Positions 6,214 to 46,125 are shown, numbered from the stretch's first letter. The stretch: DNA of 64,000 nucleotides from Candidatus Doudnabacteria bacterium (GCA_028286905.1 JAQBQP010000001.1:143114-207113); one strand, 5' to 3'. Notes: generated by a model not told the origin, from the letters alone. Numbers and translations are program-made.

Positions 6214-7137
6214 ATGCAAATTACAGAAAAGGTTATTATCGTTTCAAATTTAAATAAGAAGTATAAAGATTTTGAGGCAGTTAAAGGAATTAGTTTCGAA
6301 GTTAACAAAGGTGAGGTTTTTGGAATTTTAGGCCCAAACGGCGCTGGAAAAACCACGACCCTAGAGATAATTGAGGGTTTGAAAAAACAAACCTCAGGAA
6401 CTATTCAGGTTTTGGGCTTAGACAATCTCAAATCCGACAAAGAAATTAAGAAAAGAATTGGAGTTCAGCTACAAAGCAGCGAATATCTTAATTATTTAAC
6501 ACTTGGTGAACAAATTAAGCTATTTGGCAGTTTATATGGGGTAAAAGCTGATCCGATTGCTACTCTAAAGAAGGTTAATCTAGAAGATAAGGTGAATAAC
6601 GAAGTAAAAGAGCTTTCTGGCGGACAGAAACAACGTTTTACCATTGCCACTGCGCTAGTGCATACCCCAGAAATCCTCTTTTTAGATGAACCAACCACCG
6701 GCTTAGACCCCCAAGCGCGCAGAGATATGTGGAATTTAATAAAGGAATTAAACCTTCAAGGTATAACCATAGTTATCACTACGCATTACATGGAAGAAGC
6801 CGAATATTTATGCAATCGGGTAGCAATAATGGATTCTGGAAAAATTTTGCAATTAGACAGCCCCCAAGGCTTAATTCAATCCCTCTCTAAGGTTTATAAA
6901 CTTAGTTTTTTTGTTAACAAGCCTTTGGATAAAGAATTTTTCAATTCTTTTGGAACACTGAAAGTCTATAATGAGTTTCCTAAAATTATTATTGAGCTCG
7001 AAAATATTGAACTGTTGCCACAAATCATTCAGAAACTTAAAGATCAAGGCATCGATTATAAGTTTTTGAACCTTAAAACTGCAACTCTTGAAGACGTTTA
7101 CTTACACTTAACCGGCCGCGAATACCAGGAACAATAA
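6214..7137 (+). CDS. ABC transporter ATP-binding protein (ABC-2 type exporter)
   Basis: Walker A GPNGAGKTT, signature LSGGQKQR, Walker B ILFLDEPTTGLD. Confidence 0.85.
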   Translation: MQITEKVIIVSNLNKKYKDFEAVKGISFEVNKGEVFGILGPNGAGKTTTLEIIEGLKKQTSGTIQVLGLDNLKSDKEIKKRIGVQLQSSEYLNYLTLGEQIKLFGSLYGVKADPIATLKKVNLEDKVNNEVKELSGGQKQRFTIATALVHTPEILFLDEPTTGLDPQARRDMWNLIKELNLQGITIVITTHYMEEAEYLCNRVAIMDSGKILQLDSPQGLIQSLSKVYKLSFFVNKPLDKEFFNSFGTLKVYNEFPKIIIELENIELLPQIIQKLKDQGIDYKFLNLKTATLEDVYLHLTGREYQEQ

Positions 7138-13826: not shown

Positions 13827-13956
13827 ACATAACCACTATCGTCAGCTCCTTGACTTTTAGACGTATTTATGATACTATGGTGGATACCTAATTTTAAGGT
13901 ATTCCACGCGTCGCAAGGCGCTTAGCACGTTCACAATGTCTGGGAGGACTACACAG

Positions 13957-15132
13957 ATGTTTAAGATTCGACCCAACACTCGCGTTCGCGCGGCTATTGC
14001 CATCCTGGCATTAGCCCCAGTCTTGACAGCATGCAACAGCGAGGGTGTCACCGGTGTCAGCGCCAACCCGCCGACCTACCCCGGACCCGCCGGACCGACG
14101 ATCCCTAAGAAGACCTGCTCCGACGATCCGACCACAGGACAGCCCTGCATCAACGGCTATCCCTGGAGCAGCGTCGGCGCGATCGACCTGCCAAACGCGG
14201 TAACCGCGATGCTGGTCACCCCCGATGACAAGACCGCCTACGTCGGCGAGGGCAACCTCGTTCAACAGTATGCGGTTTTGACGGACAGCCTTCCGGCCGT
14301 TCGCCTCCAGGCTGTCGGCTCTCCGATCGGGATCGCCAGCAATGGGCGGCAATTCACGCTCTGCAACGGCCAGATCACCGCTCCGTACGGCACCAGCGGC
14401 ATCAGCATGATCGACCCTGCAACACAGACGTCGATCACTCTGCCGACGCTGACCAACAACAAGATCAGCAGCCTATCGTGCTCTCCAGGGAATTCAATCC
14501 TGGTGATAACCGATACGAACGGCGCAGTGCTCCGGTACAACTACGCAACAAAGACGACGCTTCCGATTATTCGCGACACAACGCGAATGGGAGTGCCTGC
14601 CTTCGCCGCGCAGAACCCATCCGGCACCGCTTTCATCGCTGCGAACTTCTCGGAGCGATACCAGAGCGGACAAATCGGGGTAAACTCGCCGATGCTGATC
14701 AGCCTCACGAACAGCAACACCAACGGAGTGTACTTCCCATCAAGCGGCGCGGCACTGCCAATCAACGGCGTGACGTACGGCAGCTGGGCCGCGACCATCT
14801 CCGAAGACAAAAACCTTCGTGTGTATGATGCGGTGCTTCCCAACGGCCAGTTTCCGGAACACTGCATGATGCCGCTTCCGGGGATACCTACCACCGTGAC
14901 AGCCGCCGACAACAGCAACCTCCTCGCAGTCGGCGTCCCGTTTAGCGCCACCGGCAATAAGGTGATCATCTATCGCGCCAACCCTGGCCGCCAGGCAGGC
15001 TGCGACAAGATCTTCGAGGCCGACAATTCCGTCGCGAACTCGCCGATCAAGGCGCTGCACTTCAGCGCTTCTGGTGCACACCTCTTTGTCGCCAGCGGCA
15101 ATCGAATCATCGTACTGGTCGCGAACAAGTAA
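13957..15132 (+). CDS. putative secreted lipoprotein (GC-rich islet), probable beta-propeller/repeat protein
   Basis: GGGAGGA SD 8 nt upstream of ATG 13957. MFKIRPNTRVRAAIAILALAPVLTAC is a signal peptide with an LTAC lipobox. About 62% GC against a roughly 38% background. The track ORF starts at 13936. Confidence 0.5.
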   Translation: MFKIRPNTRVRAAIAILALAPVLTACNSEGVTGVSANPPTYPGPAGPTIPKKTCSDDPTTGQPCINGYPWSSVGAIDLPNAVTAMLVTPDDKTAYVGEGNLVQQYAVLTDSLPAVRLQAVGSPIGIASNGRQFTLCNGQITAPYGTSGISMIDPATQTSITLPTLTNNKISSLSCSPGNSILVITDTNGAVLRYNYATKTTLPIIRDTTRMGVPAFAAQNPSGTAFIAANFSERYQSGQIGVNSPMLISLTNSNTNGVYFPSSGAALPINGVTYGSWAATISEDKNLRVYDAVLPNGQFPEHCMMPLPGIPTTVTAADNSNLLAVGVPFSATGNKVIIYRANPGRQAGCDKIFEADNSVANSPIKALHFSASGAHLFVASGNRIIVLVANK

Positions 15133-39771: not shown

Positions 39772-40575
39772 ATGATAACCCCTGACATACAAATACCTCA
39801 ACCAAGTGTTAATAGTGGATCCTTACGAGGACTCGGAAGTTTATTAGCAGGTAGCCTGAATATTTATAAAAACAAATTAGCCTTGTTTTTAAGTTTAAGC
39901 CTAATATCCTTGGTACCATATACCCTAGCCAGCCTTTTGTATACATTAAACGGCTTTATTTATTTAGCGGGTGCGGTGATAGCTGTTGCCTTTTTCTTTA
40001 TCGGACAAGGGGGGATTTATTTTGCTGCAAAAAATTACCAAAGTAAAATTAGCATCGGTCAGGCATTGAATTTTGGTTTAAAAAAAAGCCCTTACTATCT
40101 ATGGACTATGATCTTATCAGGATTGCTCTCGTCTTTGGGCTTCGTTTTGTTTATAATTCCAGGACTCATATTAAGTACTTGGTTCGCGTTTGCTCCTGCA
40201 ATTTTAGTTGATGAAGACATTCGTGGAACTAGGGCAATATTAAAAAGCAAATATTATGTTCAAAATTTTGGTATGGCAATTTTTGGACGAATATTTTGTG
40301 TCGGGTTTTTAATAGGGATACTTTCTTTTTTGGAAGGTTTGCTAACAAAAGGTTTGAGCGGGCAGTTGGTTTCGATCCTGGATACAGTTCTAGCAGTTTT
40401 GACCCTTCCTTTGTTCGCGATATTTACATATGAGCTTTACACAGATGTTAAGGCTAGAAAGAACTCTGCTCTTTTCCAGTCTTCATCTACTTCTCGAGCG
40501 CTTATCATTATTGGAGCAGCTATAGGATTGATTGTCCTAGTCGTACTGTTTATTCTCCGTTTGCTTAAGGGCTAA
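39772..40575 (+). CDS. polytopic membrane protein (unknown function)
   Basis: Six or more hydrophobic helices. No diagnostic motif. Confidence 0.35.
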   Translation: MITPDIQIPQPSVNSGSLRGLGSLLAGSLNIYKNKLALFLSLSLISLVPYTLASLLYTLNGFIYLAGAVIAVAFFFIGQGGIYFAAKNYQSKISIGQALNFGLKKSPYYLWTMILSGLLSSLGFVLFIIPGLILSTWFAFAPAILVDEDIRGTRAILKSKYYVQNFGMAIFGRIFCVGFLIGILSFLEGLLTKGLSGQLVSILDTVLAVLTLPLFAIFTYELYTDVKARKNSALFQSSSTSRALIIIGAAIGLIVLVVLFILRLLKG

Positions 40576-40579
40576 AAAA

Positions 40580-40607
40580 ATCCCGGTCGACGACCGGGAT
40601 TTTTTAT
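40580..40607. terminator. bidirectional intrinsic terminator (atcccggtcgacgaccgggat flanked by A/T runs)
   Basis: Seen in sequence. Serves both the + membrane-protein gene and the minus-strand tRNA. Confidence 0.6.
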
Positions 40608-40683
40608 TGGTGGGCACGCCAGGACTCGAACCTGGGACCAGTTGTGTATAAGACAACCGCTCTACCAACTGAGCTACGTGCCC
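40608..40683 (-). tRNA. tRNA with anticodon UAU (Ile, AUA decoder), CCA encoded
   Basis: Hand-folded cloverleaf GGGCACG/CGUGCCC acceptor, D arm GCUC...GAGC, anticodon arm GUUGU-CUUAUAC-ACAAC, T arm CCAGG-UUCGAGU-CCUGG. Confidence 0.7.
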
Positions 40684-40813
40684 TCGTCGCACCCGCCAGA
40701 CATCTTTCTCAGCTCTGCTTCGCAGAGCTTCTAATATGTCTGGCGGGTGCTCCTCTTAAAACTGCCTATCCTCCCTTCGGTCAGACACACGGCAGTTTTG
40801 CTACGCAAGGTTT

Positions 40814-41431
40814 TTATATTCTAACTTTTACACCAAGTTTTTTCAAGGCTTTAATAACCGCCGGAACATTCCCCGTAAAACGGATTGTATGCCAGCCAAT
40901 TTTCTTTGGCTCTACTAAGTTATAAATCCGATCGTCTATAAAGACTATCTCCTCAGGTTTAGCTTTAAGCTTCTTTGTTACATATTCGTAAATTTCACTG
41001 CCAGGCTTGCGCAGTTTAATCTCGGCAGAGTTAAACATTTTAAATTTATTAAAACTGACCTTTAAATTATTAGCCATTTTTTCTGGCCAGCCTTTTTGAT
41101 TATTTGTCAGAATTGCTATCGGGTAATCTCTTGTTAAGCTTGTTGCTAGTTTCCACATTGGTTTTATTAAAGCAGAACTGGTTAGAAATGTTTCCACTTC
41201 TGTTTCTGTGAGCGAAAGGTCGAAGCTTCGAATAATTGTTTTTAACAATTCTCGAACTGGCTTATCTCCACGTTCCGTTTGGTGGATCATGCCTTTGTAT
41301 TCATCTCGGGCATCGTCCGAAAGTTTGTTTAGATGAAAGACTTTTTCGAAAACAAATTCCGTATCGACAATTAAAACATTGCCGATGTCGAAAATTATAT
41401 ATTTGATTACCGTTGGTTCTTTGGTCTTCAT
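40814..41431 (-). CDS. HAD-superfamily hydrolase (subfamily IA-like)
   Basis: Motif I FDIGNV(L), motif II ILTN, C-terminal K...IDD. Confidence 0.55.
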   Translation of the reverse strand: MKTKEPTVIKYIIFDIGNVLIVDTEFVFEKVFHLNKLSDDARDEYKGMIHQTERGDKPVRELLKTIIRSFDLSLTETEVETFLTSSALIKPMWKLATSLTRDYPIAILTNNQKGWPEKMANNLKVSFNKFKMFNSAEIKLRKPGSEIYEYVTKKLKAKPEEIVFIDDRIYNLVEPKKIGWHTIRFTGNVPAVIKALKKLGVKVRI

Positions 41432-44848: not shown

Positions 44849-45424
44849 TTATTCAGAGTCCGTTCGGGTTAAAGGTTCGAGATCAATACCACAGAGCGTA
44901 CAATAGCCTTCGTACTGAAGAAAAATTGCGCGCGGGTGACCAGCTCGGCACTCGATCATTCGATGGTGTGCCAGGCTCCTGCCGTTCAGCGCCAAGAAGA
45001 CTTTGTGTGCGAAATGCGCGTTCTTTTCACCGCAGCATTCGCAGAATCGGCAATCGGCTTGGACCTGCTCACCGCACGAAGGCTCTTCGCACAAGGTGGT
45101 TTGTCCATACTGCCCGAGAGCGTAGAGGTGTCCCCTCAATGTATCGTGATTAGGCGCGTTCGCGGTGTCGCCAGCCGCTTGCTCAAGCTCTTGGATTTTT
45201 TTCTCAACGAAGGCATTTGATTTTTTCAGCCGGCTAGCAATAACCGCTGATTCAATCCCTTCAGAATGCATTCGAAGAATAAGAAAATCTTCGGCTGGAA
45301 TTGTTCGCGCCAGTTCCCAGCACTTTCGACTGAGTTCCTGGAAGAGCATCTCAATCTCATCATCGAGAAGAGAGTCCTGGTCGTCCTCATTGTTCTCCTC
45401 GGGTTCGGGGTCTATCCAAGTCAT
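44849..45424 (-). CDS. sigma-70 region-4-like HTH + zinc-ribbon protein, paralogue 1 (GC-rich islet)
   Basis: Start MTWIDPEPEE overlaps the upstream stop as ATGA. Sigma4-like FLILRMHSEGIESAVIASRL. C-terminal CxxCG...CxxCG, GHP, GYCxLCG. The stop is embedded in a terminator hairpin. Confidence 0.5.
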   Translation of the reverse strand: MTWIDPEPEENNEDDQDSLLDDEIEMLFQELSRKCWELARTIPAEDFLILRMHSEGIESAVIASRLKKSNAFVEKKIQELEQAAGDTANAPNHDTLRGHLYALGQYGQTTLCEEPSCGEQVQADCRFCECCGEKNAHFAHKVFLALNGRSLAHHRMIECRAGHPRAIFLQYEGYCTLCGIDLEPLTRTDSE

Positions 45425-46077
45425 AATTCCTCGTCGTTTTCGAATTGCCCAAGGATCGGCGCGAGATCTGTGCCGCACAGATTGCAATACCCGACGCACC
45501 GATACTTAATCGCTATTGGGTGGCCAACATGGCATTCACCAGCGCACTCTTCTTCATATGAGTTGCCTCGTACTTGAAGAAAGATCCGAGCGTCGAACTC
45601 GCTATTTGGCTTACCGCACTGGACGCAGTACTTAAGGTCTTCGTGCTGGAAAAAGCCGCAATTTGAACAGCGAGTTTGATAGCCGTATTCAGCTAAGGCA
45701 TGCATTGCTTCATCAAGGTTTGGCACCCAACGCAGCAGGTGTACAGTGGCAATGCGTTCTGCCGAGGCGCGAACCCCGGCAATTTCCTCAGGCGTAATAC
45801 TCAGCCTGTTTGCAATTTGATCTTCCGACAGAAATGTCAGTAGCCGAAGGATCAAAAACGCGTCTTCTCTAAGCAAGGCTGCCGCTGCAGCCGCTCGCTC
45901 CCGTACAATCTGCTCGTTCTTTTCTGCGCGCTTGAATTTCTCGAATGTTTGGGGTTGTCCAGGTTCTGCCCCTGTCGACTCGTCTGACTTGAAGATTTTG
46001 AACGAATCTGAGTGTATTCCCTCGGGGTTCCAGGCGTTGTCGTCTGAATTTTCCCAAGGATCTCTTTCCTTTTTCAT
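45421..46077 (-). CDS. sigma-70 region-4-like HTH + zinc-ribbon protein, paralogue 2 (GC-rich islet)
   Basis: GGAGG SD 4 nt before MKKERDPW. Acidic N-terminus. Sigma4-like LREDAFLILRLLTFLSEDQIANRLSITPEEIAGVRASAERI. C-terminal CSNCG...CVQCG, ECAGECHVGHP, GYCNLCG. Confidence 0.5.
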   Translation of the reverse strand: MKKERDPWENSDDNAWNPEGIHSDSFKIFKSDESTGAEPGQPQTFEKFKRAEKNEQIVRERAAAAAALLREDAFLILRLLTFLSEDQIANRLSITPEEIAGVRASAERIATVHLLRWVPNLDEAMHALAEYGYQTRCSNCGFFQHEDLKYCVQCGKPNSEFDARIFLQVRGNSYEEECAGECHVGHPIAIKYRCVGYCNLCGTDLAPILGQFENDEEL

Positions 46078-46125
46078 ACATCCTCCGGGAAGTTGGTTGA
46101 ATCTAGTATACATCCATTAAAACCT

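Follow-up and report, generated by a model that had tools for sequence, protein, structure and literature searches.

What a block of nested inverted repeats does between a protein-coding gene and a tRNA gene is the question raised by positions 40684-40810 of a 64-kb stretch of DNA from Candidatus Doudnabacteria (64,000 nucleotides; GCA_028286905.1, JAQBQP010000001.1:143114-207113), which as a whole is called the window below. The source genome belongs to the Patescibacteria, or Candidate Phyla Radiation (CPR), and has about 40% GC; its nearest relatives by gyrA are metagenome-assembled genomes of Doudnabacteria. As a preliminary description of this DNA had placed it, the block lies between the stop codon of a gene for a HAD-family hydrolase (40814-41431, minus strand; an open reading frame (ORF) with Pfam matches PF00702/PF13419, Hydrolase/HAD_2) and the 5' end of the minus-strand gene for a tRNA-Ile with the anticodon UAU and an encoded CCA end (40608-40683; predicted by ARAGORN, 75.2 bits against the tRNA family of Rfam). 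The roles proposed there were a structured pre-tRNA leader, a terminator or processing signal, and a palindrome acting at the level of DNA. Here we report that the block is very probably the structured 5' leader (5' external transcribed spacer, ETS) of tRNA-Ile(UAU), an RNA of about 128 nt encoded on the minus strand, and that its conservation in two other genomes argues for a genuine structured RNA on the strand of the tRNA. What this RNA would do in the cell is then weighed among several explanations.

Architecture of the leader element

Homologues were reached by searching with the HAD protein and inspecting the contigs that encode its homologues. The element was found at the same locus in L111 (NCBI GCA_034680565.1) and L118 (JGI 3300053229), the HAD proteins of which are 64% and 59% identical to that of the window, respectively. 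In both, the stretch from the HAD stop codon to tRNA-Ile(UAU) carries the same parts in the window's order, namely a hairpin H1, a linker, a second hairpin H2 and the bases GACG.

In the predicted fold of the window's minus-strand RNA, the leader opens with an unpaired 5' end of about 12 nt (AACCUUGCGUAGC, 40800-40811), which is not conserved in the three genomes (0-4 of six aligned columns identical). H1 (40758-40799) follows, with a 9-bp outer stem (AAAACUGCC/GGCAGUUUU), a conserved 3-nt GUG bulge and, above the bulge, five further pairs (UGUCU/GGAUA, two of them G·U); a tandem G·A/A·G and 2 bp lead up to the loop, a GAA triloop. On the plus strand this is the third hairpin of the preliminary description, aaaactgcc (40758-40766) and ggcagtttt (40791-40799), and the motif cctcccttcgg is indeed present within its loop; it begins 7 nt past the large palindrome. 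The two hairpins are separated by a single-stranded purine linker, AAGAGGA (40751-40757; AAGAGGAG with the first H2 base added), which is identical in all three genomes of the alignment. H2 (40689-40750) is the 'nested palindrome', whose perfect 15-bp inverted arms gcacccgccagacat (40689-40703) and atgtctggcgggtgc (40736-40750), 32 nt apart and listed among the inverted repeats as I3, were confirmed, as was the perfect 8-bp inner stem agctctgc (40711-40718)/gcagagct (40722-40729) inside the 32-nt spacer. The UUCG loop assigned to this inner stem turned out to be a misreading: the loop has 3 nt, ttc on the plus strand (40719-40721) and a GAA triloop in the minus-strand RNA, so that the inner stem-loop stretch is 19 nt long (agctctgcttcgcagagct) and not 20 nt. 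The 15-bp and 8-bp stems of H2 are joined by a purine-rich internal loop, AUUAGA/GAGAAAG, which contains two Watson-Crick pairs, a tandem G·A and, in all, several purine-purine pairs. Finally, the single-stranded spacer GACGA (40684-40688) connects H2 with position +1 of the tRNA and is presumed to be the region of the leader contacted by RNase P, the cleavage site of which is expected from general tRNA biology at 40683/40684.

The homologues follow the same plan. H1 of L111 and L118 likewise consists of a 9-bp outer stem, the GUG bulge and an inner stem-loop, and is followed by the linker (A/G)AAGAGGAG; across the homologues H2 has an outer stem of 14-15 bp, a purine-rich internal loop, an inner stem of 8 bp and a tri- or tetraloop, and the spacer before the tRNA is GACGA in the window and L111 and GACGCGC in L118. 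The earlier impression that the block is more elaborate than a plain terminator is thus borne out by a structured leader with two hairpins. Some other readings of individual parts were tried. The internal loop and the GUG bulge are off the consensus of K-turn and loop-E motifs by inspection. A small ORF past the linker, which resembles a Shine-Dalgarno (SD) sequence, was rejected, as no start codon or reading frame is conserved across the three sequences, and so was a long-range pairing of the leader with the tRNA or its trailer, which amounts to a 6-bp match in the window only and is not conserved in L111.

Folding stability, covariation and strand

Folding of the minus-strand RNA, which had been proposed as a check, gave -66.1 kcal/mol for 130 nt, compared with -34.8 ± 3.5 kcal/mol for 200 dinucleotide shuffles (z = -8.9), none of which was as stable. 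Folding of the plus strand is almost as favourable (z = -8.1), because the stems of the window are almost all of Watson-Crick type. The window's other tRNA operons have leaders with z values of -5.2, -0.4 and +0.7 and without a comparable GC-rich structured block; the stretch at -5.2 holds a hairpin and U-run resembling a terminator, presumably that of the upstream gene.

The structural alignment of the window, L111 and L118 was fitted by hand, with N padding to keep the register in MAFFT. In its 41 pairs, 97.6% of the cells are standard pairs and 25 pairs are changed on both sides, counts that the hand fitting of only three sequences somewhat inflates; none of 500 shuffles reached any of these measures. 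When the 3' partners were slid by 1-3 columns as a control, 33-44% of the cells were paired and 3-6 pairs had both sides changed. Moreover, RNAalifold predicted the same helices without the structure being supplied, and the minimum-free-energy folds of the three single sequences agree. All 16 pairs of H1 are kept in the three genomes, six of them with both sides changed, and in H2 changes on both sides affect 19 of the 25 pairs. The H2 sequences of L111 and L118 are near-random relative to each other (identity of 8/30 in the outer stem and 4/16 in the inner stem), and across the sequence pairs the outer stem of H2 is identical at 8-17 of 30 positions. By contrast with the stems, the bases of the bulge, the internal loop, the linker and the spacer are better conserved: unpaired columns are 67-79% identical in the three pairwise comparisons versus 49-60% for paired columns, and the linker is identical at 8/8 positions.

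The changes also distinguish the two strands. G·U pairs fill five of 123 cells and A·C pairs none, a distribution with a probability of about 0.03 if the strands were equivalent, and the paired cells amount to 97.6% on the tRNA-sense strand versus 93.5% on the antisense strand. H2 of L118 contains two mismatches and three G·U pairs, and together these indicate that the constraint acts on RNA pairing and on the strand of the tRNA. Furthermore, the context downstream on the other strand is not conserved, with a membrane-protein gene in the window and none in L111. Compensatory changes together with the G·U strand asymmetry are the generic marks of a conserved structured non-coding RNA, and by comparative sequence evidence the element is one. 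Among the roles proposed at the outset, the structured pre-tRNA leader is the one that has gained support, as the element is on the tRNA strand with a promoter-like site directly upstream, and its architecture is kept in two other genomes through compensatory changes; a processing signal is plausible.

Distribution of the element among Doudnabacteria

The element is narrowly and patchily distributed, in a manner that conflicts with the gyrA tree. An orthologue of tRNA-Ile(UAU) lies downstream of gyrA in most of the Doudnabacteria loci retrieved, yet the element was found in none of the 80 gyrA neighbourhoods surveyed from GTDB species representatives. Seven other HAD-bearing loci are also without it, five judged by sequence (leaders of 14-34 nt) and two, P0011 and P0012, by a gene spacing that is too small for the element, no DNA being read for these two; P0009 stands outside this count. 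The last 480 amino acids of gyrA group the window with L114, L119 and L115 at 92-94% identity, and none of these has the element, while L111 groups with L001 at 94%. The HAD protein of the window is nearer to those of L111, L118, L112 and L113 (60-65% identity) than to those of L114 and L119 (50-56%), and the HAD proteins of L111 and L118 are 80% identical to each other. The patchiness may come from exchange of the HAD-leader segment between lineages by recombination, or from several losses.

The closest case among the gyrA neighbourhoods is L001, with a gap of 71 nt in which only a weaker H1 is found; H2 is gone, and the linker has decayed to CAGAAGACG. The joint decay of H1 and linker with the loss of H2 suggests that the parts work together and that, as far as this comparison goes, the element may function as one unit. 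In L112, L113, L010 and L025 a smaller hairpin stands just 5' of tRNA-Ile, a hint that a hairpin in the leader of this tRNA is of general benefit.

Some observations on the same loci are recorded here in their own right. The HAD and gyrA phylogenies disagree on the nearest relatives of the window, which hints at recombination of the HAD-leader segment. In L002, L003, L004 and L071 (about 6400-6452), which are Doudnabacteria lacking the HAD gene, tRNA-Ile follows gyrA after 37 nt, and a 7-bp hairpin (GUUGCCU…AGGCAGC), the stem of which is similar to the outer stem of H1 (UUGCC…GGCAA), covers both the stop codon of gyrA and a TATAAT-like box.

Predicted transcription of the leader and its possible function

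A promoter scan placed a -35-like hexamer TTGAAA (40841-40846, minus strand) inside the last HAD codons and a -10-like hexamer TAGAAT (40818-40823, minus strand) 17 nt downstream, with a predicted transcription start at about 40811. This sigma-70-like site agrees with the consensus at 10 of 12 positions, and its last base, 40818, is about 7 nt away from the start of the block. Each of the nine HAD-bearing loci examined has the pattern TTGAAA-N17-TAnAnT at the 3' end of HAD, with leaders that range from 14 to 143 nt; where the element is missing, a distance of 16-36 nt separates the -10-like hexamer from the tRNA (leaders of 14-34 nt). We regard TTGAAA-17-TAGAAT as a credible putative promoter of the leader and the tRNA, the conservation of which may partly reflect coding constraint, since the site overlaps conserved HAD codons (ALKK...). 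In the scan of 40684-40810 on both strands no terminator was detected between HAD and the tRNA, so transcripts of gyrA (43926-41464, minus strand, the first gene in the minus-strand order at the locus) and HAD probably read through. In that case the leader would probably double as the 3' untranslated region of HAD.

On these predictions we tentatively favour the explanation that the leader is a cis-acting processing and stability cassette. Leader and tRNA would be transcribed together from TTGAAA-17-TAGAAT, within the 3' end of HAD, as well as through extension of gyrA-HAD transcripts, and RNase P would cut at 40683/40684 to free the tRNA. H1 and H2 would form an intercistronic cassette in which H1 may act as a barrier that protects the upstream gyrA-HAD mRNA from 3' exonucleases, the exposed purine linker may be the entry site of an endonuclease, and H2, with about 29 stacked pairs interrupted by the purine-rich internal loop, may serve as a signal of the RNase III type or shield the pre-tRNA as a 5' cap. 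Several points weigh against this explanation. The promoter, the read-through and the cleavage sites are all predictions, and the covariation behind the helices comes from three sequences in a hand-fitted alignment. H1 lies downstream of the predicted promoter, so that a barrier or terminator would sit in the tRNA's own transcript. The nearest gyrA relatives, L114, L119 and L115, have leaders of 14-32 nt without such hairpins, and the element is therefore dispensable. In addition, an exonuclease barrier needs no conserved GUG bulge, no conserved internal-loop bases and no invariant 8-nt linker, and the conservation of these parts points to a specific partner that a processing cassette leaves unnamed.

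It is this last point that a second explanation, possible but doubtful, accounts for better. The leader of about 128 nt, once released, would be a candidate trans-acting small RNA (sRNA), in which the purine motifs (linker AAGAGGAG, GUG bulge and internal loop) would contact a protein or base-pair with other RNAs. The invariant linker and the conserved bulge and internal-loop bases, which belong to the unpaired columns that exceed the stems in identity, are better explained in this way than by a cassette; a hairpin at each end (H1 at the 5' end, H2 at the 3' end) would stabilise the freed fragment, and the joint decay of all parts in L001 is as expected of one functional unit. A precedent for functional RNAs from tRNA spacers exists, since in E. 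coli the 3'ETS of one tRNA transcript, 3'ETS-leuZ, acts as a sponge of sRNAs (Lalaouna et al. 2015, as cited in PMC9514646). On the other side, the closest relatives are without the element. The linker is SD-like, yet SD sequences are rare here: 8 of 52 long ORFs of the window have an SD-like core in the 20 nt that precede their first ATG, a crude count with uncurated start codons, which suggests weak SD usage in the source organism. A function of the linker in binding the anti-SD of the 16S rRNA is weakened thereby and is not an obvious role for such an sRNA. Combining a functional sRNA released by RNase P with a spread of the module among Doudnabacteria lineages by recombination at the conserved HAD-tRNA locus, which would account for the patchy distribution, makes a further and rather improbable version of this explanation.

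We consider it unlikely that H1, with its A-run, GC stem and UUUU, terminates or attenuates the gyrA-HAD operon before the tRNA, with H2 as an accessory. The position would be suitable, about 15 nt past the HAD stop codon, and as in Rho-independent terminators the stems are GC-rich and that of H1 is flanked by a 5' A-run and a short 3' U-run in the window and in L111. However, the scan for terminators is empty in the block, the U-run of H1 is short, with 3-4 U (UUUG in L118), and forms pairs with the A-run, and the 'loop' of H1 would be 24 nt. Runs of 7-8 U mark the genuine terminators of this genome, as seen at inverted repeats I2, I4 and I5 and in the canonical one that follows the tRNA, a bidirectional intrinsic terminator at 40575-40605 (both strands; A-run, CCCGGUCG stem, U-run; perfect 15-bp inverted repeat I9) which serves both the tRNA and the membrane-protein gene converging on it. 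H1 moreover lies downstream of the conserved promoter-like site, and in the relatives the interval from HAD to the tRNA is free of terminators. The suggestion that the large palindrome itself is a terminator is not supported either, because H2 is followed by no U-run but by GACGA and then the tRNA, and the textbook terminator is the one at 40575-40605.

Searches for copies and related families

Very little speaks for an element at the level of DNA, that is, a palindrome for protein binding or recombination, a cruciform, or a mobile insertion in the tRNA leader of the kind of miniature inverted-repeat transposable elements (MITEs) or repetitive extragenic palindromic (REP) sequences. The perfect Watson-Crick stems of the window let both strands fold, and the presence or absence among close relatives, in conflict with the gyrA tree, would also be in keeping with such an element. 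The arms, however, keep their pairing and not their sequence, as described above for the outer stem of H2, which makes a sequence-specific DNA-binding protein unlikely; the G·U pairs occur without any A·C, i.e. on one strand only, and the asymmetric internal loops are purine-rich on one strand only. The protein-binding DNA palindrome of the preliminary description is therefore not supported. The MITE- or REP-like repeat considered there is refuted within the reach of the 64-kb window and 785 kb of related loci: the 14-mer of the arm and the inner hairpin each occur once in the window, and in the related loci the element is present at the two orthologous sites in L111 and L118 only. The three-sequence alignment was turned into a covariance model, which scored 124.9 bits against the window's own element, 128.9 bits against L111 and 118 bits against L118. 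With filters off, its next-best match in the window reached 12.9 bits (E = 0.19), leaving aside the element's own opposite-strand hairpin at 24 bits, and nothing significant was found in the rest of the 785 kb (best 12.3 bits, E = 3.4). The H1-linker-H2 module shows no terminal inverted repeats, as neither of its ends is an inverted copy of the other, and comparison with the empty sites of L114, L119 and L115 revealed no clear target-site duplication. An attachment-like site, which had also been considered, finds no integrase, recombinase or transposase nearby and no duplicated tRNA segment. In viral contigs neither the arm pattern nor the leader-plus-tRNA pattern had any match.

Known families did not account for the block either. 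No family of Rfam 15, including T-box, signal recognition particle RNA, transfer-messenger RNA (tmRNA) and self-cleaving ribozymes, matched it at the gathering score; at E <= 10 the 401-nt region gave weak sub-threshold matches only, the best with 14.1 bits against a cut-off of 315 bits. For the leaders of L111 and L118 at E <= 5 there was no match on the tRNA-sense strand, and the only one inside them was an antisense match to mir-981 (17.5 bits against a cut-off of 51 bits).

Metagenome contigs scanned with CCGCCAGACAT-N15-45-ATGTCTGGCGG gave 30 loci. About 22 of them are the 3' end of tRNA-Ser genes (CCGCCA) followed by GACAT and a terminator inside a longer palindrome, apparently gammaproteobacterial as judged by gene order, and the other eight are unrelated intergenic hairpins. 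They were rejected as relatives, since the match to the 11-mer is coincidental and the true homologues in L111 and L118 are without it. The idea that the arm ...CCCGCCA-GACAT is a tRNA or tmRNA 3' end (G73-CCA) extended into a hairpin, as in a duplicated tRNA end or a permuted gene for a tRNA-like RNA, draws on the exact 11-mer in these tRNA-Ser loci and is effectively refuted, because six of the 11 shared bases are the universal end of tRNA-Ser, the arm of the window adjoins no T-arm or other tRNA-like part and has no ARAGORN or Rfam match, and the arms of L111 and L118 are quite different and contain no CCA.

The tRNA-Ser loci have a feature of their own. In many of these contigs (L082-L110; e.g. 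L104, 4885-5330), where the tRNA-Ser 3' end (…CUCUCCGCCA) with GACAT and the terminator forms a long perfect palindrome, the far arm opens a conserved unit of about 125-175 nt (GGAGAGAGG-TTGATGAAAACCC-GTTCGAC…), which in L104 is repeated twice in tandem. The unit has no Rfam match at the gathering score, and it may be a decayed inverted 3' half of tRNA-Ser or an unannotated RNA.

Other features of the locus and the window

The genes around the block are gyrA, the HAD gene, the membrane-protein gene, nth, rsmI, yebC and ruvC. For the downstream membrane protein, no close homologues suitable as a search handle were found. The tRNA itself is unusual, since its UAU anticodon, which is encoded in the genome, decodes AUA. 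In most bacteria AUA is decoded by a tRNA with the anticodon CAU modified by TilS, and UAU is found in few lineages, e.g. Mycoplasma mobile (PMC3575796).

Elsewhere in the window, an ORF of 398 amino acids on the plus strand (13936-15132), with an N-terminus like that of a signal peptide or lipoprotein, lies in a 2-kb stretch of 52% GC versus 36-43% for the genome. It has possibly been acquired horizontally, and no Rfam match accounts for the GC peak around it. Two adjacent, overlapping and apparently paralogous ORFs on the minus strand (44849-45499 and 45421-46113; 216 and 230 amino acids) have Cys-rich C-terminal CxxC…CxxC motifs, a relatively high GC content and no Pfam match.

Relation to known systems and significance

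The element can be compared with several kinds of known RNA. RNase III intercistronic processing hairpins, such as those of the R1.1 type in phage T7 and the stems of rRNA and mRNA leaders, comprise about two turns of largely double-stranded RNA, often with an internal loop, in a polycistronic transcript. The predicted H2 would fit this geometry, as a long coaxial hairpin of a 15-bp lower stem, an internal loop and an 8-bp upper stem that lies between two cistrons of one putative transcript and has no terminator tail; unlike such signals, the element has conserved internal-loop sequence and, in addition, H1 and the linker. Barriers of the REP type, or of the bacterial interspersed mosaic elements (BIMEs), are stable hairpins past a coding gene that can block 3'-to-5' exonucleases after downstream cleavage, and the element likewise consists of stable hairpins downstream of a coding gene in a longer, predicted transcript. 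REP elements, however, are dispersed repeat families of conserved sequence, whereas this element is single-copy, its stems are free to change and its loops are conserved. Structured spacers of tRNA precursors (5' or 3' ETS) are another likeness, the element being a non-tRNA part that would be freed by the nucleases of tRNA processing, with conserved features of its own that suggest a function beyond discard, for which 3'ETS-leuZ of E. coli is the precedent (as cited in PMC9514646). It differs from 3'ETS-leuZ in lying 5' of the tRNA, in being far more structured (two long hairpins with 41 pairs) and in belonging to a CPR bacterium, and the two have no sequence or Rfam relationship. It also resembles the orphan 'motif' RNAs of Rfam (e.g. 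Weinberg et al. 2017, PMC5737381), which are intergenic, defined by structure and covariation and of narrow phylogenetic range; unlike these, it is absent from Rfam 15 and has three examples so far. We conclude that the element is an undescribed structured leader RNA of narrow distribution but of a known kind, that of tRNA-precursor spacers and orphan RNA motifs.

The practical weight of the finding is limited by three examples in a narrow clade, by its dispensability in close relatives and by an uncultured host. The RNA biology of CPR bacteria is, to our knowledge, almost unexplored, and we know of almost no regulatory RNAs described in these ultra-small organisms. CPR (Patescibacteria) genomes are tiny and contain very little non-coding DNA, so a GC-rich structured RNA of 128 nt that is under selection is unlikely to be junk. 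The element is a new structured RNA motif for CPR, attached to an unusual tRNA-Ile(UAU). If it is a processing cassette, it would show how CPR bacteria separate an mRNA and a tRNA from one transcript, and if the leader gives rise to an sRNA, it would be a rare candidate for a regulatory RNA in CPR and a new class of RNA derived from a 5' leader.

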